This document shows, piece after piece, positions 3,235 through 25,562 of a stretch of 64,000 bases of DNA. The position numbers were made by a program, and so were the translations under genes. The DNA lies in the IMG/VR virus record IMGVR_UViG_3300033144_006256, positions 1 through 64,000 of that record; one strand, written 5' to 3'. The stretch's first letter is position 1. Every line of letters starts with the position of its first letter. This stretch comes from a virus. The notes below the pieces were generated by a model, which saw only the letters and a list, made by a program, of their open reading frames with translations, did not search any database and was not told the DNA's origin.

Positions 3235-3235
3235 T

Positions 3236-4846
3236 ATGGGTAATATACTTTCATCAGATCAAGATGCTAATAAAATTTATAAACATAGTGGGTTTTCATC
3301 TTCAATAATTGATAGTTTTTCAGTAATTGATGTCCGTGGGATAACAGCGGATAATGATTATATATATTCAGCGGATGATGCAAGTAATAAAATAATAAAA
3401 TATTCAGGTTTTTCAAATACAATTTTAGATAGCTTCACATCTCCAACTGCAATTCCTTGGGGAGTTACTGTTGATAATAATTATTTTTATAGTTCTAATT
3501 ATAATAGTCAAGATATTTATAAATTTTCTGGATTTTCTTCAACAATTTTAAATAGTATAAGTCTTACATTCGCTGCTGCAGATATAACAGTTGATAATAC
3601 TTATATATATGCAGCAGACCCTGCTAATGATAACGTATTTAAAAATTCATTATTTTCATCAAATATATTAGATAGCTTTTCTGCCCCAGCTGGGGCGACA
3701 ACTGGCTTAACAAAAGATAATAATTATTTTTATACATCTAACAGTGCTGATGACAAAATTTATAAACATAGTGGATTTTCAAGTACTGTATTAGATAGTT
3801 TTTCATCTCCAAGCAGTGACCCAACTGGATTAACTGTCGCTAACTATTCAGAAAGAGTGACTACAACAACTTCCACATCAACTTCCATTTCCACAAGTTC
3901 ATCATCCACAAGTATTTCTTCATCTACAAGTTCCAGCTCAACTTCTATTTCCACAAGTAGCACGAGTATTTCCACGTCAAGCAGTTCCACAAGTATTTCT
4001 ACATCTACAAGCAGTTCAAGTACTTCGGTTTCAACTTCTAGCAGTTCAACTTCCACAAGTTCCAGTAGTATTTCAACATCTATAAGTACTAGCAGTTCCA
4101 GCACATCAATTTCAACATCTTCAACATCGGTTAGCACATCATCAAGCAGTATTTCCACTAGTTCATCATCAACGAGTATCAGTACAAGCAGTTCCAGTAT
4201 TTCCACTTCCATTTCCACAAGTTCAACTTCGGTTTCCACATCTTCAAGTTCTACATCTATTTCTACTAGCAGTTCCAGTATGTCCACAAGCATTTCCACA
4301 TCATCAACTTCTATTTCAACAAGTTCAAGTTCGGTTTCTACAAGTATTTCAACGAGTAGCACCAGTATTTCCACATCTTCAAGCTCAATTTCAACGAGCA
4401 TATCAACTAGCAGTTCATCAACATCAATCTCAACTTCAAGCAGTAGCACTAGCATTTCATCTTCAACAAGTTCATCATCAATTTCTACAAGTATTTCCAC
4501 CAGTTCTACATCGCTTTCCACATCTTCCAGCTCAATAAGTACCAGTACTTCAACCTCCAGCAGTTCAACTTCCGTTTCCACATCTTCATCATCAATTTCT
4601 ACAAGTATTTCCACTAGCAGTTCTTCAACTTCGGTTTCTACATCGTCCAGTAGCACCAGTATTTCTTCAAGCACGAGCAGTTCGTCCACAAGCATTTCCA
4701 CTTCAAGTTCTTCAACATCGGTTTCAACATCGTCCAGTAGCACTTCAATTTCTAGCTCTACTTCGTCCAGTAGCACAAGTTTAACTACAAGTATAACAAT
4801 ACCATTTGTTAAAGGACGAACATCACTTATATCAGCATTTAGCTAA
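3236..4846 (+). CDS. Beta-propeller-like repeat domain plus Ser/Thr-rich stalk; paralog of its neighbours
   Basis: Same KIYKHSGFSS.ILDSF repeats, a S/T tract of roughly 300 aa, and the shared SLTTSIT C-terminal motif. Confidence 0.7.
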   Translation: MGNILSSDQDANKIYKHSGFSSSIIDSFSVIDVRGITADNDYIYSADDASNKIIKYSGFSNTILDSFTSPTAIPWGVTVDNNYFYSSNYNSQDIYKFSGFSSTILNSISLTFAAADITVDNTYIYAADPANDNVFKNSLFSSNILDSFSAPAGATTGLTKDNNYFYTSNSADDKIYKHSGFSSTVLDSFSSPSSDPTGLTVANYSERVTTTTSTSTSISTSSSSTSISSSTSSSSTSISTSSTSISTSSSSTSISTSTSSSSTSVSTSSSSTSTSSSSISTSISTSSSSTSISTSSTSVSTSSSSISTSSSSTSISTSSSSISTSISTSSTSVSTSSSSTSISTSSSSMSTSISTSSTSISTSSSSVSTSISTSSTSISTSSSSISTSISTSSSSTSISTSSSSTSISSSTSSSSISTSISTSSTSLSTSSSSISTSTSTSSSSTSVSTSSSSISTSISTSSSSTSVSTSSSSTSISSSTSSSSTSISTSSSSTSVSTSSSSTSISSSTSSSSTSLTTSITIPFVKGRTSLISAFS

Positions 4847-4851
4847 AAAAT

Positions 4852-7800
4852 ATGATTAAAGATAAAAAGAAAATATTAGAATTAAAAAATAAACATTCTA
4901 AAAGAATGATGGAAAAACATTCTTTAACTGGTATTGGTATTGGCTATAAAACAACTAATGGAATAAAAACTGATAAACTTAGTATGGTTTTTCTTGTTGA
5001 AAAGAAACTTCCGAAAAATGAAATTCCAAAAGATAAATTATTGCCTCCTACATTAGAAGATGTTGAATGTGATGTTATAGAAACAGGCGAAATTAAAGCA
5101 TTGGCTTATACTGATAAAATACGTCCAGCAGAACCAGGCTATTCTATTGGACATCCAGATATAACAGCAGGGACATTAGGATGCGTTGTATATAAAGATA
5201 TTGGAAGATACATATTAAGTAATAATCACGTAATGGCTCACGAAAATGCAGCTGAAATTGGCGACCCTATATATCAACCAGGTGTATATGATGGCGGAGT
5301 GGCAGATGATACTGTCGCATATTTAGATAGTTTCGTAACGTTAGAAGATAATGCAACAGTTGATGGTGCATTAGCAATTATAACAAACAATGAATTAGTA
5401 ACAAATGTTGGGCAATGGGGTTCAGCTATAACAAGTTATTCTGACCCAGAAGTTGATGATACTGTTTATAAAACTGGAAGAACCACAGAAAATACAACAG
5501 GTACAGTATTATATGAGCATACAGATGTTAATATAAATTATACAGATTTGGGGGTATTACTTATAAAAGATTGTTTTATAACAGATTATATGGCAGATGG
5601 TGGGGATAGTGGTTCAGTAGGGCGATCAAGTGATACAAACGCAGTAGGGCTTTTATTCGCAGGGAGCAGTACACGAACAATATTTAACTATATGTCAAAT
5701 GTTGTTACTGAATTAGGATTTACTTTTACAGAACCATCCCCAAGATATTGGGTAGGGGGTGAAGATGATTGGGATAGTACAGCTGGGAGCAAATGGTCGC
5801 TAACTGATGGCGGAGCTGGCGGGGCTAGCGTTCCAACTTCTGATAATAATGTTTATATAAAATCAGGTGTTTGCACAATTACAGAAGCAGTATCAGCTGG
5901 AACACTAACACATACAGAAGGGACATTAGATACAAATGACCAAACATTAACAGTCACTGGTTCATTTATTACTTCTGGAGCAGAAAATAGAACATTAGAT
6001 TTTGGTTCAAGCACGATAAATTGTGGAAGTTTTACATATTCTGGCTCTGGTTTAACACTTATAGAGGGAACTTCAACAATAATAGTTGCTAATTCAGGAA
6101 ATTTTAATGGGAATGGTGAAACTTATTATGAAGTTCAACTTAATGATGAATTACATACAATAACAGGTGCAAATACTTTTACAACATTAACACGTACAGG
6201 AACAGCTACATTAGATAATAGATTAACATTATCAGCAAATCAAACTATAACTGGAACATTTACTTTAACAAGTAATTCTGTAACTAATCTTATTTTTGTA
6301 AGGTCAAATGAAAGCGGAACACAGCGAACAATAACCGCCGCCACTTTTACAATAAATTATGCTTCTTTTAAAGATATAGTTTGTGCTGGTGCTGGAACTC
6401 CCGCAGTCCCTACTTCCGCACAAAATTTAGGGAATAATAGCGGTATAACATTCCCAACTGCTATAAGATATTGGGTAGGCGGGGCTGGTAATTGGTCAGA
6501 TGGCACAAATCATTGGTCGCTAACTTCTAGCGGTTCAGCTGGGCATACTTCACCTGGTATAACAGATGATACTTATTTTGATAGTAACTCACATAACGAT
6601 GCTTATACAGTAACAGTAGATAAAACTTTTTATTCTAAAGATTTAACATTTGCACAGCCATCATCAGGTGCAGTTACATTCGCTGGGACTGAAACTTTAT
6701 ATATATATGGGGATTTAACATTAGTTGATGGAATGGTATATTCAAGCACTGGAAGTATTTATTTTAAAGCAACAGATGCTGGGCATACAATAACTTTGGC
6801 TGGCAATACTGCTGATAATCCTATTTATTTTGATGGTGTTAGCGGAGAATGGACATTGCAAGATGAATTTAATATTTCAGAAAATACTATAACACTTACT
6901 AATGGTTCTTTTGTTACTAATGACCAAACAGTTACTTGTGATGGTTTTGAGAGTAGTAATAGCAATACAAGAAGTTTAACATTAGGTTCAAGCGAAATAA
7001 CTTGTTCTGGTTTGATTGCTTGGGATATTAATACTATAACAAATTTAACTTTTGATGCTGGAACTTCAACTATTATTTTTACAAGTTATAGTATAATGTT
7101 TTATGGTGGTGGGCTAACATATTATGAAGTACAATTTACTTGTGCATATGCTAGAATTATTATTACTGGTGCAAACACTTTCACTAATTTGATAAAAACA
7201 AATACCGTAGAAGATTCAGGGGCTTCTTTTACAACTACTTTTCGTGGATATGAACGAATAGAGAAATCGTATATTGTAGAAGAATTTGATACATTGAGAT
7301 TATATGGAGACCAAACTATAACTGGTGTGCTTACATTAACTGGTTCTTCAACTGTCCCATTATTAGTTTATTCTAGTTCTAAGGGGACACAACGAACGAT
7401 AACAGCTGCTAATGTATCAGCATCTTATACCGATTTTCAAGATATTTTAGGTGCTGGTGCAGATGATTGGGATTTATCTAGTATAACTGGTGGTTCAGGT
7501 GATTGTGGTGGGAATACTGATATTACTTTTACAACACCAGCTACACAATATTGGTATAAAAATACTGGCGATTGGTCAGATAATACTAAATGGTTTTTAG
7601 CAACAAATGGAGGAGGTGGAGCAGGTAGAGTTCCATTACCACAAGATGATGTAGTTTTTGACGCTAATTCAATGGATACTGATAGCCAGGTTATAACAGT
7701 TGATAGGGGTAGAATTGGCAAAAATATAACTTTTGCGAATATAACTGATAACCCTATATTAGATATTACGTCTTGGGACAGATATGATACTTATTATTTT

Positions 7801-10800
7801 ATTTCAATTTTTGGTTCTTTAACAATGGGGACACTTACATTTGGAGAAACCACAATACATTATTATAGGATGACATTACTTTTTGAAGGTAGGGATAGTT
7901 ATACACTAACAAGTAATGGAGTATCATTTAATTGCCGTATTGGTTTGGATGCCCCTAGTGGAACATTAACATTACAAGATAATTTATTATCAACTGCAAG
8001 AGAAACAGTTGATAATAATACATTAGGCGGACTATTTATAGCGAATGGGACATTTAATGCTAATAATTATAATTTAAATATAGCTGGTATTTGGGTAGAC
8101 GTTGGGGCAGAGAGAACAATAAATATGGGAAGTGGAACTTGGATATTAGATGGGCATAGAGGTTCTTGGACAGCTAATCCATATGATTTAACAATAAATG
8201 CTGATACTTCTTTAATAAAATTAACAAATAATTCTAGTATAGATAAATATTTTTATGGAGATCACCATACTTATTATAATTTATGGAATGTAACAGAAGG
8301 AAGCGGAAAACTTATTTTTACAGATACAAATACTTTTAATGATATTAAAATAGATGCTGGTAGAGAAACACAATTTACGGGTGATACTACACAAACAGTA
8401 ACAACTTTTACAGCTAATGGTTCAGAAGGAAATTTAATCACACTTACAAGTTATGATGATATTGCCTATACACTTACAAAAGCTGGTGGTGGAACGATAG
8501 AATGTGATTATATAGATGTTAGTAAATGCACAGCAATGCCAGAAGATACTTGGTATGCTGGGGTAAATTCAGTAGATAGCGGGGATAATACTGGTTGGGA
8601 TTTTGCAACTACATCTACAAGTTCAACCTCTACAAGTTCATCAAGTACATCAGTTTCTACTTCATCATCTTCTACTTCTACAACTACAATACTAGTAGGT
8701 AATATAATAGGTTGTGATAGTAATAATGATAAATTTTATAAACATAACGGTTTTTCTGCTGGTATCTTAGATAGTTTTTCATCACCATCAACTGCCCCAA
8801 AAGGATTAACACACGATGGGTCTTATTTTTATAGTATAGATAGTGATTCAGATAAAGTTTATAAACATTCAGGTTTTTCAAACACAATATTAGATAGCTT
8901 TGCAACTGGGATAAATAATCCTGACGGGATAACTGTTGATGATAATTATTTTTATGTAAGTGATAATAATTTTGAAAATACAAAACATTATAAATTCTCA
9001 GGATTTTCTGCAACTATTTTAGATAGTTTTTCAACTGATGGGATAGAAGCAAAAGGGATTACAATTGATTTTTATTATTTTTACTATTCAGTGGCATATT
9101 CACCTTTAACTGGTATAAATTTATATAAAAGTTCTGCATTTGGTGGGACTGTACTTGATAGTTTTAATCACGGCAGTTATACAATAAATGGTATCACTGC
9201 AATAAATACAAATTTATGTATAACAGATAGTGGGAATAAGATTTATAAATTTTCTGGATTTTCTACTACAGTATTAGATAGTTTCGTAACAACTAATGAA
9301 CAATACTTAGCTTATGATGATTATGATGCAAGAATGGAAACAACAACTTCAACATCTACTAGTTCCACATCAATATCTACAACATCTATTTCCACGTCAT
9401 CTACAAGCACAACAGAAATAACAACATCTACATCAATTTCCACTTCATCTACAAGTATTTCAACAACCACTATTTTACAAGGGGATATAATTAGTAGTGA
9501 TTATAATACTGACAAAATTTATAAACATTCAGGATTTTCATCAACTATTTTAGATAGTTTTGCTTCTCCTTCAACATATCCACGTGAGATTACTATTGAT
9601 AATAATCATTTGTATAGTTTAGATGATGACACTAATAAAATTTATAAACATTCAGGATTTTCTCCAACTATTATAGATAGTATAAATATACCATCAAATA
9701 ACCCAAGAGGTATTACTGTCGATAATAAATATTTGTATAGTTCTAAATGGAATTCTCCTAAATTTTACAAACATAGTGGATTTTCAAGCACTATTTTAGA
9801 TAGTTTTGCATCGCCATCAACTCCTGTCCCAAGCGGGCTTACTATTGATAATAATTATTTATATAGTTCAGATAATAACACTGATAAATTCTATAAATAT
9901 TCTGGGTTTTCATCAACTATTTTAGATAGTTTTGCATCGCCATCAACTAGCCCACTTGGGTTAACTATTGATGATAATTATCTGTATAGTTCAGATAGTG
10001 CTTCAGATAAAATTTATAAACATTCAGGTTTCTCTTTAACAGTTTTAGATAGTTTTAATTCGCCTGATAGCAATCCAATCGGGCTTACCCAAGATAATTA
10101 TGATGCTCGGATAGAACCAACCACATCAACATCTACAAGTAGCAGTTCAACTTCTGTTTCAACTTCTTCTACCAGCATTTCAACATCCAGTAGCTCTGTT
10201 TCCATTTCAACTAGCACATCTAGCAGTTCAACATCAATTTCTACGAGTTCATCAAGCACATCAATTTCTACATCTTCCACATCGCTTTCAACTTCCAGTT
10301 CCAGTATTTCAACATCCATATCCACATCATCAACTTCGCTTTCTACATCAACTTCCAGTAGCAGTACTTCGCTTTCCACATCTTCATCATCTACAAGCAC
10401 AACAGAAATAACAACATCAACAAGTATTTCTACATCAAGCACATCCACTTCCAGCAGTTCCATTTCATTTTCTACATCTACATCTTCATCATCAATCTCA
10501 ACATCAATCAGTACTTCGTCCACAAGTATTTCAACATCTAGCAGTAGCACAAGCATTTCAACAAGTACATCATCTACAAGTATTTCTACTTCTTCCAGTA
10601 GCACAAGCGTTTCAACAAGTATTTCTACAAGTTCAAGTTCGGTTTCAACTTCAATTAGTATTTCAACATCTTCAACTTCGCTTTCATCTTCTACAAGCAG
10701 TAGTTCCACATCTATTTCAATAACATCCACATCATCATCATCAACAAGTTTAACTACAAGTATAACATTGTATTTCAGAGGGTACACTATATTAAATAGC

Positions 10801-10830
10801 GAACATAAATTACATACAACAATAAATTAA
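4852..10830 (+). CDS. 1992-aa multidomain protein: trypsin-like serine protease, beta-strand-rich adhesin-like region, two propeller-like domains, Ser/Thr stalk
   Basis: Catalytic-triad motifs LSNNHV / VDGAL / GGDSGS; repeated RYWVGG..W modules; two sets of GFSSTILDSF repeats; C-terminal S/T tract. Confidence 0.7.
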   Translation: MIKDKKKILELKNKHSKRMMEKHSLTGIGIGYKTTNGIKTDKLSMVFLVEKKLPKNEIPKDKLLPPTLEDVECDVIETGEIKALAYTDKIRPAEPGYSIGHPDITAGTLGCVVYKDIGRYILSNNHVMAHENAAEIGDPIYQPGVYDGGVADDTVAYLDSFVTLEDNATVDGALAIITNNELVTNVGQWGSAITSYSDPEVDDTVYKTGRTTENTTGTVLYEHTDVNINYTDLGVLLIKDCFITDYMADGGDSGSVGRSSDTNAVGLLFAGSSTRTIFNYMSNVVTELGFTFTEPSPRYWVGGEDDWDSTAGSKWSLTDGGAGGASVPTSDNNVYIKSGVCTITEAVSAGTLTHTEGTLDTNDQTLTVTGSFITSGAENRTLDFGSSTINCGSFTYSGSGLTLIEGTSTIIVANSGNFNGNGETYYEVQLNDELHTITGANTFTTLTRTGTATLDNRLTLSANQTITGTFTLTSNSVTNLIFVRSNESGTQRTITAATFTINYASFKDIVCAGAGTPAVPTSAQNLGNNSGITFPTAIRYWVGGAGNWSDGTNHWSLTSSGSAGHTSPGITDDTYFDSNSHNDAYTVTVDKTFYSKDLTFAQPSSGAVTFAGTETLYIYGDLTLVDGMVYSSTGSIYFKATDAGHTITLAGNTADNPIYFDGVSGEWTLQDEFNISENTITLTNGSFVTNDQTVTCDGFESSNSNTRSLTLGSSEITCSGLIAWDINTITNLTFDAGTSTIIFTSYSIMFYGGGLTYYEVQFTCAYARIIITGANTFTNLIKTNTVEDSGASFTTTFRGYERIEKSYIVEEFDTLRLYGDQTITGVLTLTGSSTVPLLVYSSSKGTQRTITAANVSASYTDFQDILGAGADDWDLSSITGGSGDCGGNTDITFTTPATQYWYKNTGDWSDNTKWFLATNGGGGAGRVPLPQDDVVFDANSMDTDSQVITVDRGRIGKNITFANITDNPILDITSWDRYDTYYFISIFGSLTMGTLTFGETTIHYYRMTLLFEGRDSYTLTSNGVSFNCRIGLDAPSGTLTLQDNLLSTARETVDNNTLGGLFIANGTFNANNYNLNIAGIWVDVGAERTINMGSGTWILDGHRGSWTANPYDLTINADTSLIKLTNNSSIDKYFYGDHHTYYNLWNVTEGSGKLIFTDTNTFNDIKIDAGRETQFTGDTTQTVTTFTANGSEGNLITLTSYDDIAYTLTKAGGGTIECDYIDVSKCTAMPEDTWYAGVNSVDSGDNTGWDFATTSTSSTSTSSSSTSVSTSSSSTSTTTILVGNIIGCDSNNDKFYKHNGFSAGILDSFSSPSTAPKGLTHDGSYFYSIDSDSDKVYKHSGFSNTILDSFATGINNPDGITVDDNYFYVSDNNFENTKHYKFSGFSATILDSFSTDGIEAKGITIDFYYFYYSVAYSPLTGINLYKSSAFGGTVLDSFNHGSYTINGITAINTNLCITDSGNKIYKFSGFSTTVLDSFVTTNEQYLAYDDYDARMETTTSTSTSSTSISTTSISTSSTSTTEITTSTSISTSSTSISTTTILQGDIISSDYNTDKIYKHSGFSSTILDSFASPSTYPREITIDNNHLYSLDDDTNKIYKHSGFSPTIIDSINIPSNNPRGITVDNKYLYSSKWNSPKFYKHSGFSSTILDSFASPSTPVPSGLTIDNNYLYSSDNNTDKFYKYSGFSSTILDSFASPSTSPLGLTIDDNYLYSSDSASDKIYKHSGFSLTVLDSFNSPDSNPIGLTQDNYDARIEPTTSTSTSSSSTSVSTSSTSISTSSSSVSISTSTSSSSTSISTSSSSTSISTSSTSLSTSSSSISTSISTSSTSLSTSTSSSSTSLSTSSSSTSTTEITTSTSISTSSTSTSSSSISFSTSTSSSSISTSISTSSTSISTSSSSTSISTSTSSTSISTSSSSTSVSTSISTSSSSVSTSISISTSSTSLSSSTSSSSTSISITSTSSSSTSLTTSITLYFRGYTILNSEHKLHTTIN

Positions 10831-11876: not shown

Positions 11877-12332
11877 ATGATTGAAATAGATGTTACGGGT
11901 GTAAAAAATGTAAATGAAATACTAATTTCTTTAAATAGGCGATTAAAAAATATCAATCAGCCATTAAAACAAAGTGGAAGGTTATTTTTAAAAGCAATCC
12001 AAGACAATTATAATACGCAAGGGAAAACATTCGGCAAGCCGTGGAAGCCGTTAAAACCAGCAACAATAAGGGCAAAACAGAAATTAGGATATTTAGGAGC
12101 GGGACCGCTTAACAGAACAGGCACAATGAAAAGAAGTTTTAAAATGAAAATGGGAAAAAGCGAAGTTATTATATCAAATCCTACAAGTTATTATCCATAT
12201 CATCAAAGTTCAGCACCAAGAAGAGTAATACCACGCAGGGTTACTATGCGGATGGATAGAGAAAGAAGAACCCAGATATTTAAAATCTTTCAAAGATATG
12301 TTGTAGATATATTGCAAAAACGGAGAAAATAG
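11877..12332 (+). CDS. Phage virion morphogenesis (Mu gpG-like) neck protein
   Basis: G.PW.PLKPAT...L.RTG.M.RS...YHQ....IP.R motif. Confidence 0.75.
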   Translation: MIEIDVTGVKNVNEILISLNRRLKNINQPLKQSGRLFLKAIQDNYNTQGKTFGKPWKPLKPATIRAKQKLGYLGAGPLNRTGTMKRSFKMKMGKSEVIISNPTSYYPYHQSSAPRRVIPRRVTMRMDRERRTQIFKIFQRYVVDILQKRRK

Positions 12333-12821
12333 GTGTATAATTCATTAACCAAAATTAAAGATATTTTAAGAACAAATATAGGCACAGGAAAAGTGAAAAA
12401 GATTTTTATTGGCGATCCGTATATGATACCAACATCGCAACTTCCTTGTGTAGCAGTAGTTCCCGTATTAACAGGTGTAGATGTGGCAGATAATACAAGG
12501 GATGCTAATATATTTGAAATAGATATAGTTGGAATAGAAAATATTAAAAGTTATTTTGGAGAAAAACTTGATGAAATGGTTGGGGTAAAAGCGTTAATAA
12601 ATATTATGGAAGAAAGAAACAGCAGTGGAACATTGCAATCAGATACAGTTTTATATCAATTAAGGGATAATCTACAATTAGGTAATAATTGGCAGATAAA
12701 TAATATTGCTGGTATAGAATATTCAAGAATAGGTGAAGGGCGACCACGACCAGAACAGTTGATAACGATAGAAGCATCTATAAGAATAACAATTACAAGA
12801 TTTAACAATAGACCAACATAA
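12333..12821 (+). CDS. Putative tail terminator/completion protein
   Basis: Size, LPCVAV motif and position between neck and tail tube genes. Confidence 0.45.
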   Translation: MYNSLTKIKDILRTNIGTGKVKKIFIGDPYMIPTSQLPCVAVVPVLTGVDVADNTRDANIFEIDIVGIENIKSYFGEKLDEMVGVKALINIMEERNSSGTLQSDTVLYQLRDNLQLGNNWQINNIAGIEYSRIGEGRPRPEQLITIEASIRITITRFNNRPT

Positions 12822-13012
12822 TGAAAAAAATTATAAATACTTATCCGAAAACATTATCGTTTTCTGATATAAGATTAAATATACAATCTAGCGAAATATT
12901 GAATGTGCCAGATAGCATAGCAAAGTATATGCTTGTAAATCCGTTCATCAAGCTAGTACAAGCGGATAAATTCCGTAAAACGGGTAATACCCGAATTAAA
13001 AAGAAAGGATAA
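12821..13012 (+). CDS. Small hypothetical protein
   Basis: Overlapping stop/start (TAATG) inside the structural operon. Confidence 0.5.
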   Translation: MKKIINTYPKTLSFSDIRLNIQSSEILNVPDSIAKYMLVNPFIKLVQADKFRKTGNTRIKKKG

Positions 13013-13014
13013 AT

Positions 13015-14010
13015 ATGCCAATTAACAGTGGGCGGTTAGGATGGCTTGGTATAGCACTTAACGCATCAGCAGGTGATGACAATGAACCAGAAAAATATAT
13101 ACCATTTAGAACTTGCACTTTAAAAAGTGTTATGGAACCAATAGAAGATAATGCAGCAAGGGGATTAAGGGAAGCTGTATCTGCTGGTTCATCAACATCA
13201 GATGAAGGCGGTCCTATAATAGGTAAAACAAGGGGGGAAGGGACTACCGAATGTTTTGTAGATGTAGAAAATGCACCTTATCTACTTATACCAGCATTAG
13301 GCTCAGTTTCAACAACAGCTGCATCAGGTGAAGCGGCAGTTTATGAGCATACTATTACAAGGAAAGCTGCAAACGCACCGAAAACAGCAACACTTACATC
13401 GTATAGGGTAGTTGATACTGAAAAATATCTTTATGCAACAGCAAATTCAACTACATTAGCTGTTAGCGATGGTGAATTTACAATATCAACCGATTGGATT
13501 AGTAAATTCCCAATAGCAGGCTCAGGTTCAAAATCATTAACAGAAGAAAGAATATTAAGTTTTAAAGATTATACTGTTAAATTCGGTGATGATTTAACCG
13601 CGGCAGATAGTGCAGAAGCAACACCATTAACAGGATTTACGCTAACTATAAATAATAATGCAGAAGCACATTATTTAAGCGGTTCAAACGATGTAAATGT
13701 AGTAAGTTTAGGAAACTTTGAATTGTCAGGTGATTTTAGTTTATTCTTTGAATCTGAAACACAAAAAGATATTTATGAAACACTTGATAAAAAAGCAATG
13801 GTAATATCAATCACAGGTGCATCAATTGGAAATTCAGAAACAGCAGAAATACAGATCAGAATACCACGTGTTTATTTTACAGATCATTCAGTTGAAACAG
13901 GAATTGATGGATTTTATGCTGAAACACCATCTTGGAAAGCAGGATATGATAGCGGACAATCAAGTTCTATAACCGTTATAATAACTAACGAAACAGCAAG
14001 TTATACTTAA
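13015..14010 (+). CDS. Major tail tube protein
   Basis: 331 aa, acidic and beta-rich, FTLTINNN motif, GAAAGG RBS, followed by a terminator, then chaperone and tape measure genes. Confidence 0.75.
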   Translation: MPINSGRLGWLGIALNASAGDDNEPEKYIPFRTCTLKSVMEPIEDNAARGLREAVSAGSSTSDEGGPIIGKTRGEGTTECFVDVENAPYLLIPALGSVSTTAASGEAAVYEHTITRKAANAPKTATLTSYRVVDTEKYLYATANSTTLAVSDGEFTISTDWISKFPIAGSGSKSLTEERILSFKDYTVKFGDDLTAADSAEATPLTGFTLTINNNAEAHYLSGSNDVNVVSLGNFELSGDFSLFFESETQKDIYETLDKKAMVISITGASIGNSETAEIQIRIPRVYFTDHSVETGIDGFYAETPSWKAGYDSGQSSSITVIITNETASYT

Positions 14011-14017
14011 AATTTAT

Positions 14018-14043
14018 AGCTGGGCTACGCTAGCCCAGCTTTT
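14018..14043 (+). terminator. Intrinsic terminator after the tail tube gene
   Basis: AGCTGGGCTA-CGC-TAGCCCAGCT followed by a T run. Confidence 0.75.
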
Positions 14044-14077
14044 AATCAACTAAGTTAAAAATATGCCAAAGATATAG

Positions 14078-14105
14078 TTGACAATTTACAGAGATATATT
14101 ATAAT
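14078..14105 (+). promoter_or_regulatory. Sigma70-type promoter for a probably leaderless tnpB mRNA
   Basis: TTGACA-16 nt-TATAAT, with ATG 6 nt after the -10 box and no SD. Confidence 0.75.
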
Positions 14106-14111
14106 CTATAT

Positions 14112-15260
14112 ATGGAAAAAGGAATAAAATATAGGTTATATCCTAATAATAAACAAAGAATATTATTAGAAAAACATTTTGGTGCTACAAGATGGTTATA
14201 TAATTATAGTTTGAATAAAAAAATAAAACTATATCAGAGAAGAAACAAGTCGATAAGTTGTTTTGATTTAATAAAAGAAATCCCTAAATTAAAAGATGAT
14301 AGAGAATGGTTAAAAGAAGTTAATTCGCAATCTTTACAGATGGAATTACGCCAACTAGATAATGCTTTCACAAGATTTTTTAGAGAGAAAAAAGGGTTTC
14401 CAAATTTTAAATCAAAGAAGAAAAAAAACTCGTTTAGTATACCACAAGGTAATAGAATAGAAGATAACAAAGTTTCTTTTATAAAGATTGGTAGTATTAA
14501 AGCTAAAATAGACAGAAAATTTGATGGGAGAATAATAAAAGCAACAATAAGTAAAAATAATATAAACCAATATTTTGTTTCATATATTATAGATACCAAT
14601 AATATATTAGAGCATACCAGAAATATCAATAAGAAAACAACTGTTGGGATTGATTTAGGGATAAAACACTTTGCTATTCTATCAAGTGGAGAAAAAATTG
14701 ATAATCCGAAATTTTTAAGAAAATCAGAGCAAAGATTAGCCATTCTTCAAAAAAGATTAAGCAAAAAGAAAAAAGGTAGTAACAATAGAATAAAAGCAAG
14801 ATATAAAGTAGCTAAAATACATAACAAAATATCAAATCAAAGGTCGTATTTCTTACATAATCTAACTTCAAAGCTAACCAACGATAACCAAGTTGATACA
14901 TACGCTATTGAAAATCTAAACATAAATGGAATGATAAAGAACCACTGTTTAGCAAAATCAATTAGTGATGTTAGTTGGGGCGAATTTGTAAGGCAATTAT
15001 CTTATAAATGCAAATGGTATGGCAAAAATCTATTAACAATCGGTAGATTTGAACCAAGTAGCAAAATGTGTAGTTGTGGGTATATAAATAAAGAATTAAA
15101 ACTTTCAGATAGAGAATGGGAATGCCCAGAATGTAAAGTAACCCACGATAGGGATATACTTGCATCGAATAACATTAAAAAATTTGCATTACAAAATCAA
15201 AACTTAATAAATAATTCACCGTTGTTGAAACGGGTAGAGCCTGTGGAGCTGTCGCATTAG
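14112..15260 (+). CDS. tnpB: RNA-guided endonuclease TnpB (IS200/IS605 family)
   Basis: N-terminal KYRLYP HTH; RuvC D/E/D intact (GIDLG, IENL, HDRD); CSCG..CPEC zinc finger. Confidence 0.95.
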   Translation: MEKGIKYRLYPNNKQRILLEKHFGATRWLYNYSLNKKIKLYQRRNKSISCFDLIKEIPKLKDDREWLKEVNSQSLQMELRQLDNAFTRFFREKKGFPNFKSKKKKNSFSIPQGNRIEDNKVSFIKIGSIKAKIDRKFDGRIIKATISKNNINQYFVSYIIDTNNILEHTRNINKKTTVGIDLGIKHFAILSSGEKIDNPKFLRKSEQRLAILQKRLSKKKKGSNNRIKARYKVAKIHNKISNQRSYFLHNLTSKLTNDNQVDTYAIENLNINGMIKNHCLAKSISDVSWGEFVRQLSYKCKWYGKNLLTIGRFEPSSKMCSCGYINKELKLSDREWECPECKVTHDRDILASNNIKKFALQNQNLINNSPLLKRVEPVELSH

Positions 15261-15320
15261 CGAGGTATTGAAGCAGGAATTAACGAAAGGATAAATCAAA
15301 TGCCAAAGATAGAAGATACT
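15219..15320 (+). ncRNA. Omega-RNA (reRNA) scaffold 1 plus predicted guide
   Basis: Stem CCGTT-GTTGA-AACGG whose loop can pair with TCAA (15296-15299); CCTG-TGGAG...GAAG-CAGG core typical of TnpB RNAs. Confidence 0.7.
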
Positions 15321-15614
15321 ATCAAAAAAATAGATATTATTTTGCCAAGTAATAAAGAAGTAAAATTAACAATTAGAAAAGGTATGTCCGTAGGTGATCT
15401 TGAAGAAGTTAATATAGAAGAAGATGATTTTAAGCGTTCAATAATAATGCTTGAAAAGATGATAGTTAGTTGGAATTTTACTGATAAAGATGAAAACCCA
15501 TTGCCGATAGTATATGATAATATACGGAAATTAAATATATCTGATATGAATTTTATCATTAAAAGTGCGGATATTAAAAACGGTTTTTTAGAGCAGAAGC
15601 AAGAAGAGAAATAG
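15300..15614 (+). CDS. Tail assembly chaperone (G form)
   Basis: IVSWNFTD...LP motif; sits between tail tube and tape measure genes. Confidence 0.75.
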   Translation: MPKIEDTIKKIDIILPSNKEVKLTIRKGMSVGDLEEVNIEEDDFKRSIIMLEKMIVSWNFTDKDENPLPIVYDNIRKLNISDMNFIIKSADIKNGFLEQKQEEK

Positions 15615-15787
15615 CGAAATCGATATGGCTAAACCAAAGGAGCTATCTTGCGACAAAACTATGGTTGTGCAGTGAAATGAGCTGGACGGAACAAGAGTTT
15701 TTAAACCAAAATATTGAATTTGTAGAGGCATTGATTGAATACAAAATACAAATCAGCAAAAAAGCTGAAAGTGATAGAAAAAAATAA
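15584..15787 (+). CDS. -1 frameshift extension of the tail assembly chaperone (GT form)
   Basis: In-frame slippery heptamer T TTT TTA at 15584-15590. The -1 frame is open to TAA 15785-15787 (..WLCSEMSWTEQEFLNQ..), abutting the tape measure ATG. Confidence 0.75.
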   Translation, partial: FFRAEARREIAKSIWLNQRSYLATKLWLCSEMSWTEQEFLNQNIEFVEALIEYKIQISKKAESDRKK

Positions 15788-17872
15788 ATGGCGACAGCAG
15801 ATAATAGTTTAAATATATTTATTAGGGTTAAAACTGAAGCAGAAAAAGCCATTAGAAATGTATCAAAAGAATTAGATACACTTACTAATAATATTTCTTC
15901 TTTTAGTAAAAAAAATGAAGAAGCTATAAAGGCTTCTAATAGATTTGCTATTGGGCTAACTGCTGTTGCTGGTGCTGCTAGTTATATGGGCAAACAAATG
16001 TTAGATGCAGCTGGAACATTTGAACAAAGCCAAATTGCTTTTACAACTATGCTTGGTAGTGCAACCCGTGCAGAAACAATGCTTGATAAACTTGCTGAAT
16101 TTGCTAAAAGAACACCTTTTGAATTAGCTGGGATAGAAGCAAATACAAAACAATTATTAGCAATGGGAATATCTAGCACTAAGATAATGCCAACATTAAA
16201 AGCATTAGGTGATATTTCAGCAGGGTTAAGTGTACCATTAGAAAGATTAGCTTTAAACTTTGGACAAGTAAAAACACAAGGGAAATTAACAGGTAGGGAA
16301 TTAAGAGATTTCTCAGTAGCTGGTGTTCCATTAGTTGCAGAACTTGCAAAACAATTAAACGTTTCTAAATCCGCAATAGCAGAAATGGTTTCTGCTGGTG
16401 ATATAGGGTTTGAAGAAGTTGAAAAAGCATTTATTTCTATGTCCTCTGAAGGTGGTAAATTTAATAATTTAATGGATAAACAATCGAAATCATTAAATGG
16501 TATGATTTCTAATCTTAAAGACGCTTGGGAATTATTTTTAAGAGGTGAAGGACAAAAATTATTAGAATGGGGAAAGCAATTTGTTCAAATGGCAATAGAT
16601 ATAGTTGATAATAAACTTCCAAAATGGATAAATAGAATTGAAGATATAACTAAATATTTAAAAGAACATAAAACTACATTAATTGTTGTTTCTGGGATAA
16701 TAATGGGTGCATTAGCACCAGCTGTTATTTCAGCAGCAACTGCCTTTAGTGCATTAGCATTATCATTAGCACCATTTTTAATAACTGGTGTAATCGCTGG
16801 TGCATTAGCCGCAGGGATAATAGCTATTATAAAAAATTTTGATAAATTAAAAAAAATTGTAGTAGATACTTGGGATAAAATTAAAAATGGTTGGAAGGCA
16901 GTAGCTAATTGGTTTAAAACTGGTGGAGCAGGGACTTGGGGATGGGTTAAAAATTTTTTCAAATCATTGATTGATAGTATAAAAAGTTTTTTTACATTCA
17001 AATGGATAAAAGATGGACTTTTATCACTTAGAGATATGACTAAACGGGTTACCAAAGAAATCACCGAGACTGATGAAGAAAGGATGGCGAGATATAAAAA
17101 AATACAAGAAGAAACGATAAAAAGGGCGTGGGGGATGGAATTAGAATGGCGAGCGAAACAAATAGAAATGGCGGAAGATGCGAAAGAAGCACAAGAAGCA
17201 ATGGCTAGAGCATCAAAAGAGGCATCAGAAGAAGCAGAAAAAGCAGCAAAAGAAGCATCTAAAGCGTGGAAAGAATATGTAAATAAAACGGTGGATAATC
17301 TTCAAAGGTTAAAAGATGAATTTTTTGGTGAAAGAGATGAAGAAGTATCAGCATTAGAAGATATGATTAGTAAAAGGCAAGAATTACAAGACGAGATTAA
17401 ACAAGAGCGTGGTTTGCTAATGGGAACATTTTTAGGCGAACAACTTACTAATAAAGAAATTGAAAAAAGAATGGCATTACACGGGGACGAAATAAAAGCA
17501 CTTGATAAAAGATTTGTAGCAGAACAAACACAAATAGAACAGGCAGAAGAAAGAATAAGGCAATTAAAATCAGAAGAAAAAATACTTGATACTAATACTA
17601 TTAAATTAAGAGCATTACAAAGACAAGCAGTAGTTGAAAAACAAATAACTGGTATGGGATTAGATTTACCAGCCAGAGAAACACCTGGGTTTCAAGCACC
17701 ACTTCCTATAGATTGGATAAAAGCTGGTATGCCATCACAAGGGTTAGCACAAAATATTCTTAACTTTGATTTTAGCGGAGCAAGAATAGAAGATAAAGAA
17801 ACATTTAAAAATGATATTATAGAAGTATTAAGGCAACAAAGTATACTAGGAGTTCAAGGATTAACACAATGA
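15788..17872 (+). CDS. Tail tape measure protein
   Basis: Tape-measure N-terminal domain (FAKRTPFEL..GQVKTQGKLTGRELR), Trp-periodic amphipathic helices, coiled coil. Confidence 0.92.
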   Translation: MATADNSLNIFIRVKTEAEKAIRNVSKELDTLTNNISSFSKKNEEAIKASNRFAIGLTAVAGAASYMGKQMLDAAGTFEQSQIAFTTMLGSATRAETMLDKLAEFAKRTPFELAGIEANTKQLLAMGISSTKIMPTLKALGDISAGLSVPLERLALNFGQVKTQGKLTGRELRDFSVAGVPLVAELAKQLNVSKSAIAEMVSAGDIGFEEVEKAFISMSSEGGKFNNLMDKQSKSLNGMISNLKDAWELFLRGEGQKLLEWGKQFVQMAIDIVDNKLPKWINRIEDITKYLKEHKTTLIVVSGIIMGALAPAVISAATAFSALALSLAPFLITGVIAGALAAGIIAIIKNFDKLKKIVVDTWDKIKNGWKAVANWFKTGGAGTWGWVKNFFKSLIDSIKSFFTFKWIKDGLLSLRDMTKRVTKEITETDEERMARYKKIQEETIKRAWGMELEWRAKQIEMAEDAKEAQEAMARASKEASEEAEKAAKEASKAWKEYVNKTVDNLQRLKDEFFGERDEEVSALEDMISKRQELQDEIKQERGLLMGTFLGEQLTNKEIEKRMALHGDEIKALDKRFVAEQTQIEQAEERIRQLKSEEKILDTNTIKLRALQRQAVVEKQITGMGLDLPARETPGFQAPLPIDWIKAGMPSQGLAQNILNFDFSGARIEDKETFKNDIIEVLRQQSILGVQGLTQ

Positions 17873-17882
17873 GCATTCAATT

Positions 17883-17911
17883 TTGACAAAAAATAAAATA
17901 TTTTGTATAAT
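17883..17911 (+). promoter_or_regulatory. Sigma70-type promoter for a probably leaderless tnpB mRNA
   Basis: TTGACA-17 nt-TATAAT, with ATG (17918) 6 nt after the -10 box; same geometry as cassette 1. Confidence 0.75.
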
Positions 17912-17917
17912 ATAGAT

Positions 17918-19042
17918 ATGTGTAAGAGTTATAGAATAAAGTTATATCCTAACAATATACAAAAACAAGAATTATTAAAATATGCTGGTGCTTGTAGATT
18001 TGTATATAATTATTTTCTTGATAGAAAGAAAACTGAATATTTAAAAAATAGTAAAAATATCCCATATAATAAACTTTCAAAAGAATTAGTAGTTTTAAGA
18101 CACAATACAAGTTGGCTAAAAAATATACCGTTTGTCCCACTCCAACAATCATTAAGGAATTTAGATACTGCATATAATAAATTTTTTAGGAAACAAGCAA
18201 AATTCCCAAAGTTTAAAAGAAAATATAGTAGGCAATCAATAAGAAAAATTAATGGGTGGCATATAAAAAATAATAAGATAGTTTTTTCTAAAGAATTACA
18301 TTTGAAATTTAGGGGTAGAATTACAGAAAACCCAGTAGGCACTTTAACTATATCAAGGAATGCAATTGGAGAATGGTTCGCCTCTGTAATGGAAGATATA
18401 GAAGTTAAAAAAGTAAAGTTAAAAGGCAATATAGGAATTGATTTAGGTATTAAAGATTTGGCTATAACAAGCGATGGCGATAAATACAAGAATTGCAAAC
18501 CATTAAAATCAAATTTAAAACAATTAAGAAAGAAATCAAAAATACTTTCTAAAAAGAAAAAAGGAAGTAATAGAAGAAAGAAAGCAAGATTTGAATTAGC
18601 AATATTGCACAATAAAATTAGTAATATAAGGAATAATCATCTTCATCATACTTCAAAAGCGATTGTTAGCAAAAACCACGCGATAATTGCATTAGAAGAT
18701 TTGGCGGTTATAAATATGATGAAGAATAGAAAACTATCGCAAGCAATATCAGATGTAGGTTGGGCTGAATTAGTAAGGCAAATTACATATAAACAAAGTT
18801 GGATAGGTGGAAAAGTAATCAAAATTAACAGATTTTTCCCTTCATCGAAGACTTGCTCCAAGTGTGGATTTGTTTTAGATAGTTTGCCATTAAATATTAG
18901 AGAATGGCAATGCCCAAAATGCAAAGCAAAACACGACCGCGATGTTAATGCTGGTAAGAATATCTTATCGCAAGCATTAAAAACCGCTAAAAATATTTTA
19001 AAACAAGGGGTTGCGGAACTGCCCCGCGTGGAGAGCAGATAA
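17918..19042 (+). CDS. tnpB: RNA-guided endonuclease TnpB; likely start ATG 17918 rather than TTG 17903
   Basis: SYRIKLYP HTH; RuvC D/E/D intact (GIDLG, LEDL, HDRD); CSKC..CPKC zinc finger. Confidence 0.95.
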   Translation: MCKSYRIKLYPNNIQKQELLKYAGACRFVYNYFLDRKKTEYLKNSKNIPYNKLSKELVVLRHNTSWLKNIPFVPLQQSLRNLDTAYNKFFRKQAKFPKFKRKYSRQSIRKINGWHIKNNKIVFSKELHLKFRGRITENPVGTLTISRNAIGEWFASVMEDIEVKKVKLKGNIGIDLGIKDLAITSDGDKYKNCKPLKSNLKQLRKKSKILSKKKKGSNRRKKARFELAILHNKISNIRNNHLHHTSKAIVSKNHAIIALEDLAVINMMKNRKLSQAISDVGWAELVRQITYKQSWIGGKVIKINRFFPSSKTCSKCGFVLDSLPLNIREWQCPKCKAKHDRDVNAGKNILSQALKTAKNILKQGVAELPRVESR

Positions 19043-19122
19043 GCCCTTAATTTATTAAGGCAAGCTCTATGAAACGCTGATATCTTAGAAAGGATAATTC
19101 CGTGAGCATTCAATATAATTCA
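19007..19122 (+). ncRNA. Omega-RNA scaffold 2 plus predicted guide
   Basis: Stem GGGGTTG-CGGAA-CTGCCCC; loop complementary to TTCCG (19098-19102); GCGT-GGAG...GAA-ACGC core; terminal hairpin TATCTT-AGAA-AGGATA. Confidence 0.75.
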
Positions 19123-20364
19123 ACTGAATTAGAAAACGCAACTTATAATGCAGAATTTGTTAAACACGAAAGCACACCGAATAGAGAATTAAATATAATC
19201 CCGCATATTAAACAAACAGGTGGTATATTAGTTAATGAAAGATTCCCATATAAAACAATACCATTAAGGGGATATATAGTAGGTTCATCACAATCAGATT
19301 TAGATAGTAAAATTGATACACTTAAAAATTTATTTAATACAAGCGAAAAAAATTTAGATGTTAGCTGGGCAGGCGGGACAAGAAGATATGTAGCAACGCC
19401 AAGAAATTTTATATGCGATAGAAACCATTATAATGTTTCATCAGTTAATTTTAGTGTTGATTTTGTTGTGCCAAGTGGTGTAGGTAAAGCTACAAGTTTA
19501 ACCCCAGTTATAAATGCTTTGTCAGTAACATCAACGCCATACACTAACACTACTATGAATTTAAGTAGTGGTTCATCAAGAATACGCCCTTTGATAACAA
19601 TAACAACAAACAGTGGGACGATACACGGATATAAAGTAACTAATACAATAACTGGCGATTATTTTATCTTAACAAGAGGTGGAACTGGGTTAATCTCTGG
19701 ACGAACTATAGATTGCGATGCAAAAACGATAAATGGTGTTTATGATAATTTTATAGGTGATTTTTTAGATTATTCCCCATTGGCGAATAGGCGATTGAGA
19801 ATAGATGTTGGAGAAATATTAGATGAACATTTTGATAGTTATGAGTATGGTGTTGCTATATATAATGATGGTGCTAATGACATTGAAAGAGCCGTAAGTT
19901 TTAAAACAAAACATTCTGATGATACATATAGAAAAATGGCTTGTTTTATTAAAAAAACAGGGACACCAGTTGGGAACTTAAATTGGAGAATAGAAACTGA
20001 TAATAATGGAGAGCCATCAGGGACTTTAATCCACGCACAAGCGTATGGAGCAATATCTGCTGGAGAGGTAACAACAAGTCTTGATTGGGTAGAAGATTAT
20101 ACAAATAGCACATTTACTGGGATAAAAGCTAACACTACATATTGGTTAAGATTTGCCGCATCTGCATCTGGGGGTGATAGTTCAAATTGTTTTGTGATTG
20201 GGTATGGTGCTGAATATAGTAAGGGGACTGGTGCTACGACAGATGACGGTGGGACAACTTGGACAATATCAACTAAAGCATATCCATTTAGATTATATAT
20301 AGGTGGAGCAACACCTGGATTTAATTTTACTCTTGATCTTGATTATTATCCAACATATTTATGA
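19102..20364 (+). CDS. Distal tail (Dit-like) protein with an inserted beta-sandwich domain
   Basis: I.LRGYI...DLDSKIDTLK..F, RRYVA and FSVDF motifs; first structural gene after the tape measure. Confidence 0.6.
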   Translation: MSIQYNSTELENATYNAEFVKHESTPNRELNIIPHIKQTGGILVNERFPYKTIPLRGYIVGSSQSDLDSKIDTLKNLFNTSEKNLDVSWAGGTRRYVATPRNFICDRNHYNVSSVNFSVDFVVPSGVGKATSLTPVINALSVTSTPYTNTTMNLSSGSSRIRPLITITTNSGTIHGYKVTNTITGDYFILTRGGTGLISGRTIDCDAKTINGVYDNFIGDFLDYSPLANRRLRIDVGEILDEHFDSYEYGVAIYNDGANDIERAVSFKTKHSDDTYRKMACFIKKTGTPVGNLNWRIETDNNGEPSGTLIHAQAYGAISAGEVTTSLDWVEDYTNSTFTGIKANTTYWLRFAASASGGDSSNCFVIGYGAEYSKGTGATTDDGGTTWTISTKAYPFRLYIGGATPGFNFTLDLDYYPTYL

Positions 20365-21557
20365 AAACATTATTTTATAAAGTCAAAGATAGTTCTGGTG
20401 AAATCTTAAAAGATAGTAACGGCTATCCATATTTTTGGGACGATGTTACATTTAGCGGTTTTACTAAAAGAATAAATGCTGGGAATAGTGACTGCCAACT
20501 TATTTTAGCAAGAGCATTTGATAATTATGGCGAAGATGAAGATGTATCATTAGGGAATATTGTAGAAATTTATATAAACGATGAAGATGCTAAAAATTTG
20601 CTTATTTATTCAGGATATATTTCAACAATTCGTCCAATTACAGAAGGCGGAAAAGAAAAAGTAGATATACAATTATTAGGGCAACAAACCCGATTATCAA
20701 AAGCAGTTTTGAAAAATAGCACACAAACAACACTTTATACAGATACAACAGCAGGATTAACAACTGCTGCGGCTGGTTCAGTAGCGGATTTAGGACTTGT
20801 TATGAGAGCGATAATAACAAGGTGGCAAGCAGAAGAAACTAATCCGATTATTACAACAACAGCAGGGCAATGTAAAGATACAAACACAACAGAAACTTAT
20901 ACTTTTACATCAAGAACTTATTTAGATGCAATTAATACAGTAAAAGGATTATCACCATCAGCATTATGGTATTGGTATTTAGATGAAAATAATGTTTTCA
21001 ATTTTAGAAGTGATGCAATTACAGAACACACCTTTTATTTTGGCAAGCATCTTTCAAGTTTAAAGGTAGAAAAACGCATTGACACAATCGTTAATTTCGT
21101 GTTAATATACAATCGTGATACAGGTTCACCGATATACAGAATGTATACAGATAATAATTCAGTTAATCTATATGGGACACGAACATTAAAAATACAAAAT
21201 AAAAGTATTATAAACACAGATATTGCAGATAAAATAGGAAATAGAATTATAAATGAAATGAAAAATCCAGATGTTCGTGTTGAAATGGATATAATTGATA
21301 ATAATGAAAGCAGTGATGGATATGATATTGAAAGTATCCGTCCAGGCGATACTTTCAAATTGCGTGGCGTTAATGACGCTTTGGCAAATACAATTTACGA
21401 TGATATGCAAATTACAGAAGTTCAATATAGATTAGATGGGGCAAGGGTTATAGCAGAACCAGTAAAATCAGGGATTATTCAATCAATAGTGAATGTAAAT
21501 ACAAAACTAGATGAAATAGGGAGCGAAGGTGTAGGCACAACATACACCGCAGCGTAA
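20361..21557 (+). CDS. Baseplate hub/Tal-like tail protein
   Basis: WYWYLDENNVFNF, SVNLYG and IRPGDT motifs; follows the Dit-like gene. Confidence 0.6.
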   Translation: MKTLFYKVKDSSGEILKDSNGYPYFWDDVTFSGFTKRINAGNSDCQLILARAFDNYGEDEDVSLGNIVEIYINDEDAKNLLIYSGYISTIRPITEGGKEKVDIQLLGQQTRLSKAVLKNSTQTTLYTDTTAGLTTAAAGSVADLGLVMRAIITRWQAEETNPIITTTAGQCKDTNTTETYTFTSRTYLDAINTVKGLSPSALWYWYLDENNVFNFRSDAITEHTFYFGKHLSSLKVEKRIDTIVNFVLIYNRDTGSPIYRMYTDNNSVNLYGTRTLKIQNKSIINTDIADKIGNRIINEMKNPDVRVEMDIIDNNESSDGYDIESIRPGDTFKLRGVNDALANTIYDDMQITEVQYRLDGARVIAEPVKSGIIQSIVNVNTKLDEIGSEGVGTTYTAA

Positions 21558-25557: not shown

Positions 25558-25562
25558 ATAGT

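Follow-up and report, generated by a model that had tools for sequence, protein, structure and literature searches.

Analysis of the first 64 kb of an 84.6-kb phage contig (IMG/VR record IMGVR_UViG_3300033144_006256, about 80% complete; this 64-kb stretch is referred to below as the window) revealed three TnpB/omegaRNA cassettes, each preceded by a short copy, here called the relic, of the first bases of the sequence that the cassette's own guide RNA (omegaRNA) is predicted to target. In two of them the relic ends just upstream of the -35 box of a tnpB promoter. The region 14055–14112 can be read, with modest confidence, as the left-hand junction of a TnpB/omegaRNA cassette that lacks a transposase, and 17869–17918 as its twin. 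The explanation of the relic towards which we lean, at slightly better than even confidence, is that it is the junction scar of a TnpB-linked insertion into gene starts. A regulatory role for the relic is not required by the data. In comparisons the three cassettes are labelled E1, E2 and E3, and L-numbers denote the compared loci or contigs.

Left junctions of the two tnpB cassettes

The following features make up cassette 1:

14063–14074, + strand: relic 1, ATGCCAAAGATA, identical to 15300–15311 (guide-target positions 1–12)
14078–14105, + strand: tnpB-1 promoter, 12/12 match to the sigma-70 consensus (TTGACA 14078–14083, 16-nt spacer, TATAAT 14100–14105)
14112–15260, + strand: tnpB-1, 382 aa (Pfam HTH_OrfB_IS605, OrfB_IS605 and Cas12f1-like_TNB)
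15217–15299, + strand: 3′ part of the omegaRNA-1 scaffold (hairpin 15219–15233; loop TTGA 15225–15228 pairs with TCAA 15296–15299)
15300–15315, + strand: predicted guide 1, also the start of a 104-aa tail gene

Cassette 2 is composed as follows:

17870–17881, + strand: relic 2, TGAGCATTCAAT, identical to 19103–19114; its ATG begins at 17869
17883–17911, + strand: tnpB-2 promoter, 12/12 match to the sigma-70 consensus (TTGACA 17883–17888, 17-nt spacer, TATAAT 17906–17911)
17918–19042, + strand: tnpB-2, 374 aa (Pfam HTH_OrfB, OrfB_IS605 and Cas12f-TNB domains)
19007–19102, + strand: 3′ part of the omegaRNA-2 scaffold (hairpin 19007–19025; loop CGGAA 19014–19018 pairs with TTCCG 19098–19102)
19103–19118, + strand: predicted guide 2, bases 2–17 of the Dit-like gene at 19102–20364

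In cassette 1, the relic is followed by TAG (3 nt) and then by the -35 box TTGACA at 14078; in cassette 2, a single T (17882) separates the relic from TTGACA at 17883. Relic 1 encodes a mini-open reading frame (ORF), MPKI-stop. Relic 2 shares bases with the stop codon of the tape-measure gene (TGA, 17870–17872), and a native ribosome-binding site, AAGGA, has been kept upstream of it.

Both promoters were examined in a scan of positions 12000–21000, in which each candidate was scored out of 12 for its match to the sigma-70 consensus hexamers. They were the only 12/12 matches in this region. In each case the ATG (14112 and 17918, respectively) is located 6 nt past TATAAT. An earlier note on this DNA had placed the ends of the upstream duplicates 3 and 1 nt before the tnpB -35 boxes, and had described both promoters as consensus with the ATG 6 nt past the -10 box; the sequence, the pattern search and the promoter scan bear out both statements. 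With so short a distance from the -10 box to the ATG, the tnpB-1 and tnpB-2 mRNAs are probably leaderless, the predicted start site being the A of the ATG. Counted from this putative start site, relic 1 spans -49 to -38 and relic 2 spans -48 to -37. The same layout (TATAAT/TATTAT-N6-ATG) is present in the relatives L005 and L007, whose TnpB proteins are 68% and 66% identical, respectively. A further promoter of the window, at 38271, also has an ATG 6 nt past its -10 box, and leaderless starts may be common in the phage.

The two TnpB proteins share 42% identity. Both are homologous to ISDra2 TnpB (8BF8; E = 3.6e-66 for TnpB-1, and E = 1.5e-71 for TnpB-2) and both have an intact RuvC D/E/D triad.

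Guide start and omegaRNA scaffolds

The pseudoknot next to the guide is a conserved feature of TnpB and Cas12 guide RNAs (PMC10097598). In the E1 family (E1, L005, L007 and L051; alignment A6), 36 of the 36 cells of the pseudoknot are paired and eight of the nine pairs show compensatory changes. None of 500 shuffles matched this pairing, and sliding the partners by a single column lowered it to 56%. The loop and the end of the scaffold pair as TTGA:TCAA in E1 and L005, as CCGA:TCGG in L007 and as TTGT:ACAA in L051. The pseudoknot of E2 and E3 keeps all five of its pairs, one by a compensatory exchange (A-U to U-A; loop CGGAA/CGGTA with TTCCG/TACCG), and its last paired base is the G of a GTG start codon.

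This covariation places the predicted guide start at the first base of each repeat: at 15300 (the A of ATG) for guide 1, and at 19103 and 57444 (the T of GTG) for guides 2 and 3. With the guide beginning where the repeat begins, the relics correspond to target positions 1–12 (1–11 for cassette 3). The earlier note had regarded the upstream copies as the seed, or start, of the target, and they are indeed the first 11–12 nt of the predicted guide targets. Counted from the ATG, the relics of the three cassettes are 12, 13 and 12 nt long; relic 3 covers guide-target positions 1–11.

Comparison with relatives supplied a further view of the right end. Cellular relatives (from Methanosarcina and others, 45–55% identity) and Enterococcus phage iF6 end in ...GAAGCAGGAAGC, a G+C-rich hairpin, TAGTTCA(C/A) and then the flank. 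E1 has ACGAAAGGA in place of the hairpin and terminates in TAAATCAA, which is homologous to the ...TAGTTCAC terminus of the cellular relatives. An end of the omegaRNA-1 scaffold at about 15283 was also considered, as E1, L005 and L007 diverge after GGAATTA; the relic would then correspond to guide positions 17–28. This candidate was ruled out by the terminus of the relatives and by the covariation. A search of Rfam gave no family above threshold (poplar-1 only, at 23 bits against a gathering score of 110), and a scan with the conserved omegaRNA-1 core found only the contigs of L005, L006 and L007.

The right end adjoins a start codon in E1, E2, E3, L005, L007 and L051. The GAAAGGA at 15285–15291, within the omegaRNA-1 scaffold, is the Shine-Dalgarno sequence of the next gene; likewise, in cassette 2, GAAAGGA is the Shine-Dalgarno sequence, and the scaffold closes with the G (19102) that opens the GTG start codon. 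The phage itself uses GAAAGGA(TAA) as its ribosome-binding-site consensus, its general start context being TAGAAAGG-N-AAAWT-ATG. The sequence GAAAGGATAA is present in the right ends of all three cassettes (15285–15299, 19088–19102 and 57429–57443) and also at native genes (13003 and 43706). The shared sequence suggests that the cassettes mimic, or may have captured, a native translation-initiation region within the guide-RNA scaffold. Since the rebuilt gene's start codon marks the end of the scaffold, the guide is templated by the gene start itself. For guide 1 that gene is the 104-aa tail gene, two homologues of which, P0002 (90% identity) and P0003 (71%), likewise start with MPKIEDTIK.

A third cassette and the specificity of the repeats

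The third cassette is located far from the other two and consists of an orphan omegaRNA:

57281–57459, + strand: cassette 3, with relic ATGGACGAAATA at 57281–57292, a scaffold extending to G 57443 and a guide from 57444

Its scaffold is 78% identical to that of cassette 2, with compensatory changes in stem and pseudoknot. It contains neither a tnpB gene nor a consensus promoter, and could be served in trans by TnpB-2. The relic lies in an 18-nt native intergenic gap, and the working start, GTGGACGAAATA at 57443, is the GTG of a 596-aa gene located 3′ of the prohead protease gene. The repeat pair of this cassette, TGGACGAAATA (57282–57292 and 57444–57454), is confined to its cognate sites in the 64 kb.

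A pattern search of the window found exactly two occurrences each of the 12-mers ATGCCAAAGATA and TGAGCATTCAAT, both at cognate sites. In addition, the 150 nt upstream of tnpB were compared with the 300 nt downstream in 67 TnpB loci, with 600 non-cognate pairs serving as a control. An upstream/downstream match of at least 12 nt was detected only in E1, E2 and one further locus, where it involves an arm of the left-end/right-end (LE/RE) hairpin; among the non-cognate pairs, 1 of 600 reached 12 nt. The probability that repeats in independent cassettes would by chance both start at the first base of the guide and end at the -35 box is negligible.

Search for a target-adjacent motif

The 5-mers ahead of the relics are AAAAT (cassette 1), CACAA (cassette 2) and AATTA (cassette 3), and no common motif is apparent among them; relics 2 and 3, which belong to one scaffold family, have no 5-mer in common. 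The earlier note had listed AAATA, CACAA and AATTA as the bases before the sites and had concluded that they share little. The conclusion stands, while the 5-mer of cassette 1 has to be corrected to AAAAT, with the guide register running from A 15300. These 5-mers are the ordinary A-rich spacer that precedes start codons in this phage, where TTAT or TTTAT is found in none of 51 genes. An apparent motif ahead of the relics (T at -7, A at -5 and -3) was discarded, as it is the phage's general start-codon context.

Relatives point to TT(T)AT as the target-adjacent motif (TAM) of the E1 family. This motif precedes the CTC... of multi-copy Methanosarcina elements; TTTAT lies before the left end CGTTTTAGG of the phage iF6 element (right end ...TAGTTCAAC) and, in L007, immediately before TTGACA. 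At the ISDra2 TAM-contact positions E1 is identical to L032 (C, S, Q, Q), whose copy follows TTTAT. TTTAT is also the TAM of GstTnpB2, and binding by dTnpB shows strict TAM dependence together with tolerance of mismatches (10.1101/2023.03.14.532601). TT(T)AT was found neither before relic 1 nor before the -35 box of cassette 1, and the complete target copy at 15300 is preceded by ATCAA, with no TAM-like motif there. The TAM of TnpB-2 could not be deduced in this way because the protein has no close relatives among viral contigs, metagenome contigs and phage records (best match at most 45% identity).

The relic as a proposed insertion scar

TnpB recognises a TAM-proximal heteroduplex of about 12 bp (PMC10097598). 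We propose that the naive allele would have been opened at the TAM-distal side of such a guide-target duplex. The right end would then have been repaired by homology from the donor, with copying of the guide region, scaffold, tnpB and promoter. The left end, with target positions 1–12 or 1–13 protected or trimmed to the longest non-cleavable match, would have been joined non-homologously to the promoter end of the donor. Longer relics would remain cleavable and hence would be lost.

Such an insertion scar would explain (i) the native context of relic 2 (stop codon and AAGGA site), (ii) the presence of ATG in the relics and GTG in the working copies, and (iii) both the strong ribosome-binding site supplied by the cassette and the contact between relic and promoter. 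Functionally, cassette 1 begins with its consensus promoter, and it is for this reason that the relic touches the -35 box.

The window contains one further nuclease cassette with a comparable footprint:

46376–47420: NUMOD3-HNH endonuclease cassette, repeat 46390–46491 / 47316–47417, extended -10 promoter

It is flanked by a relic and a working 5′ end of the next gene, alike over about 100 nt (71% identity). Together with the relic of cassette 3, this indicates that nuclease cassettes of this phage generally leave relic gene starts behind. The relics of the TnpB/omegaRNA cassettes are uniformly short (12, 13 and 12 nt) compared with the approximately 100 nt of the HNH cassette, which argues that the guide duplex sets the breakpoint. 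L007 has the layout of E1 (a 12-nt ATG-relic, 3 nt and TTGACA), with a relic that no longer matches its own guide (6 of 12 positions); this, too, is counted in favour of the scar. The HNH reading frame is apparently split (46608–46970, then continuing downstream).

Several observations weigh against the scar. A cassette-free allele was found neither with exact junction patterns in viral contigs nor among viral and metagenome contigs with relatives of the 104-aa gene, and for this reason the mode of insertion is inferred. Only two relatives of the tube gene were found (46–48% identity), and the distant relatives L003 and L004, which lack the cassettes, are too diverged for a comparison of junctions. 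Phage iF6 and phage Porthos were considered as an occupied/empty pair of alleles, but Porthos carries another gene at the position and does not provide a clean empty site. The scar also requires a cut by TnpB, and hence a TAM before the relic, where none is recognisable. Moreover, the left junctions of E1 (14063–14083) and L007 (2442–2462) are alike (ATGyyAAAGATwTAk-TTGACA, 17/21) even though the sites are unrelated, and the left flanks leading up to the -35 box agree at about 17/23 positions. Possibly the element carries its relic along when it moves, or L007 later had its right flank exchanged. Finally, the uniform 12-nt length fits selection for binding of the TnpB ribonucleoprotein (RNP) equally well.

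Alternative explanations

The earlier note had proposed that the RNP sits on the native TAM plus seed and blocks its own promoter. In its fuller form, TnpB–omegaRNA bound to the relic (TAM plus 12-nt match) would cut inefficiently and block sigma region 4 and the C-terminal domain of the alpha subunit (alpha-CTD), exerting a negative feedback on nuclease dose, either as an adaptation or as a by-product of the scar; this we regard as unlikely, albeit the least so of the alternatives. The match itself stood up, as did the geometry reaching to the -35 box: the relic comprises guide positions 1–12, its length equals that of the approximately 12-bp TnpB heteroduplex (PMC10097598), and the -35 hexamer occupies what would be positions 15–21 of a target counted from a TAM at the relic, where a bound RNP should occlude it. 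There are also precedents, since TldR relatives repress promoters with 9–16-nt guides and a seed of about 6 nt (PMC10705468), and autorepression by Cas9 with tracr-L relies on an 11-nt match (10.1101/2020.05.21.102756). Promoters with a 12/12 consensus make dose control a plausible need. The rest of the proposal is not supported. No motif is common to the 5-mers that precede the relics; they depart from TT(T)AT and represent generic start-codon context. The TAM-contact residues of E1 are those of L032, whose copy follows TTTAT, and TnpB is reported to bind in a strictly TAM-dependent manner (10.1101/2023.03.14.532601). Nor is the match conserved, with 6 of 12 positions in L007 and 6 nt followed by mismatches in L005. 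Adjacency to the -35 box is automatic, the promoter being the first element of the cassette, and in cassette 3 a perfect relic persists although there is nothing for it to control. Feedback on TnpB at the RNA level is, besides, already known (PMC10278001). Nor can binding without cutting, which the earlier note listed as known to occur in such effectors when only the seed matches, be assumed: in ISDra2 TnpB a 12-bp match still allowed reduced cleavage, and mismatches at positions 13–16 reduce cleavage without abolishing it (PMC10097598). Both enzymes of the window have an intact catalytic triad, and an intact enzyme might, given a TAM at the relic, cut its own promoter. Autorepression is thus plausible by geometry and precedent but lacks a recognisable TAM and conservation and is not needed to account for the data, and we judge it rather improbable. 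The same holds, a little more strongly, for the specific proposal that a nuclease-active TnpB would use its truncated homing target as an operator, kept at a length of about 12 bp that is bound but poorly cut, with the RNP covering the -35 box and throttling its own synthesis in a loop created by the mode of insertion.

The 12-mer might instead be part of the mobile unit and resemble an attachment core, a circle or module integrating by microhomology with a gene start in a Campbell-type event that leaves 12 nt on both sides. A single crossover yields flanking direct repeats, Lys-rich gene starts (ATG-NNN-AAA) are common, so that microhomology would be easily found, and E1 and L007 are alike over about 23 nt upstream of the -35 box at unrelated sites. 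Relic 2, on the other hand, is clearly native, since it contains the stop codon of the tape-measure gene and comes with a native ribosome-binding site, and relic 3 lies within the 18-nt native intergenic gap. No recombinase gene was found in the cassettes and no Y1 transposase gene in the genome, and no new repeat is seen where L007 now lies. We consider an attachment core somewhat less probable than autorepression. Far less probable is a target-site duplication bounded by an R-loop. Here TnpB or a structure-specific nuclease would cut at both edges of the 12-bp duplex, and fill-in would then produce a 12-bp duplication beginning at guide position 1, in effect an RNA-guided insertion. The start of the repeats at guide position 1 and their length of 11–12 nt in three cassettes would fit this, as would the heteroduplex of about 12 bp, but known TnpB cuts lie 15–21 nt from the TAM (PMC10097598). 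In addition, 1 or 3 extra nucleotides separate relic and promoter, and there are no empty sites for comparison. To our knowledge, no integration activity of TnpB has been described, which also counts against such a duplication. Chance matches in A+T-rich DNA do occur, as illustrated by the 1 of 600 non-cognate pairs reaching 12 nt in the 150 × 300-nt windows. The positional coincidences refute chance for practical purposes: three exact repeats occur only at cognate sites in 64 kb and run from the first base of the guide, in two cases as far as a -35 box.

Relation to known systems

The cassettes are TnpA-less IS605-type derivatives adapted to start codons, with the left end cut down to the promoter. 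They resemble IS200/IS605 (IS1341-type) elements such as ISDra2, ISGst2 and that of Enterococcus phage iF6 in several respects: (i) TnpB has the RuvC D/E/D triad, the HTH/WED-REC part and the zinc-finger TNB domain, (ii) the omegaRNA overlaps the 3′ end of tnpB, with the pseudoknot strand directly 5′ of a guide templated by the right flank, and (iii) the terminus of the right end is homologous to ...TAGTTCA(C/A). Unlike IS200/IS605 elements, the phage lacks a Y1 tnpA gene, as no PF01797 match was found in the 84.6-kb record, while control genomes were positive. The left end consists of 0–3 nt plus the promoter without a hairpin, and GAAAGGA occupies the place of the right-end hairpin, whereas both end hairpins are present in the cellular relatives and in phage iF6. 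Furthermore, the right end adjoins a start codon, no TTTAT-type TAM precedes the relic, and an 11–12-nt direct repeat of the target flanks the cassette. IS200/IS605 elements make no target duplication.

TnpB elements of another kind were observed in the viral contigs L009, L010, L011 and L026. Their TnpB proteins are about 47% identical to TnpB-1, and the elements carry terminal inverted repeats, GGCACTTATAT... / ...ATATAAGTGCC; IS200/IS605 elements lack such inverted ends.

By analogy, the niche of the cassettes appears to be that of the free-standing homing endonucleases of phages, such as T4 Seg/Mob (PMC13565253). In both, a nuclease gene with its own promoter lies between conserved phage genes, the target is in the adjacent gene and the resident allele is protected by sequence context. 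An HNH gene occupies the same slot in the relative L003, and the HNH cassette of the present genome also leaves a relic. In contrast to homing genes with recognition by protein, recognition here is by a guide RNA and the relic is only 12 nt long, the length of the guide duplex.

The 9–12-nt guide match at a promoter is also reminiscent of Cas9 tracr-L at Pcas9 (10.1101/2020.05.21.102756), where the promoter is that of the effector's own operon, and of the nuclease-dead TnpB repressors TldR (PMC10705468). In those systems a protospacer-adjacent motif (PAM) or TAM is required and present, binding and repression have been measured, and the effector has either a short guide or no nuclease activity. 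The cassettes described here combine an intact enzyme and a full-length guide with a truncated target and no evident TAM.

Two nuclease-like reading frames were noted in the compared contigs. L003 (IMGVR_UViG_3300031920_000294) carries at 3534–4172 a 212-aa gene, HNH-like by eye and without a Pfam match, in the same tube/chaperone slot as cassette 1, and the contig also has an E1-type TnpB cassette elsewhere (L007). In L005, a NUMOD3-like ORF at 2043–2504 (E = 0.0065, below the Pfam cutoff) runs into the TnpB promoter, and the TnpB cassette may have truncated it.

Surrounding genes and other features of the window

The two tnpB genes interrupt a tail module:

10.9–22 kb: tail module, with tube, 104-aa, tape-measure and Dit-like genes
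13015–14010: tail-tube gene (Pfam Phage_tube_2)
14018–14040, + strand: G+C-rich hairpin with a 10-pair stem, 3′ of the tail-tube gene and upstream of cassette 1
15300–15614: 104-aa tail gene, its start being the guide 1 region
15788–17872: tape-measure gene (Pfam TMP_3)
19102–20364: Dit-like gene (GTG start)

The hairpin at 14018–14040 is a probable terminator in native phage DNA.

Elsewhere in the window, perfect TTGACA-N17-TATAAT promoters whose spacers are conserved form a family at 25491–40317 and at 49878; presumably these are early promoters. The region 415–10830 contains three very large ORFs (939, 536 and 1992 aa) made up of low-complexity stretches rich in Ser/Thr and of roughly 120-nt repeats bearing a conserved YKHSGFSSTILDSF-like motif, and these ORFs probably encode fibre or adhesin proteins. 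At 43866–44027, within the ORF 43720–44190, there are six to seven tandem 24-nt units (CTGTGTTTT..ACTGGCTCTG.).

Significance

TnpB, from which Cas12 descends, is also of use as a compact genome editor, which lends interest to the ways in which its transposase-less copies spread and keep their dose harmless. In the layout shared by the three cassettes the guide begins at the start codon of an essential gene, the scaffold contains the ribosome-binding site of that gene, and the left junction holds the 12 nt that TnpB reads. Were the RNP to bind the relic, this would be the first case of an active TnpB regulating itself through a truncated copy of its target, and a natural RNA-guided feedback loop in a Cas12 ancestor. 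If the relic is a scar, as we favour, it would record the chemistry of insertion during RNA-guided homing in phages and provide an in vivo read-out of the longest match that is not cleaved.

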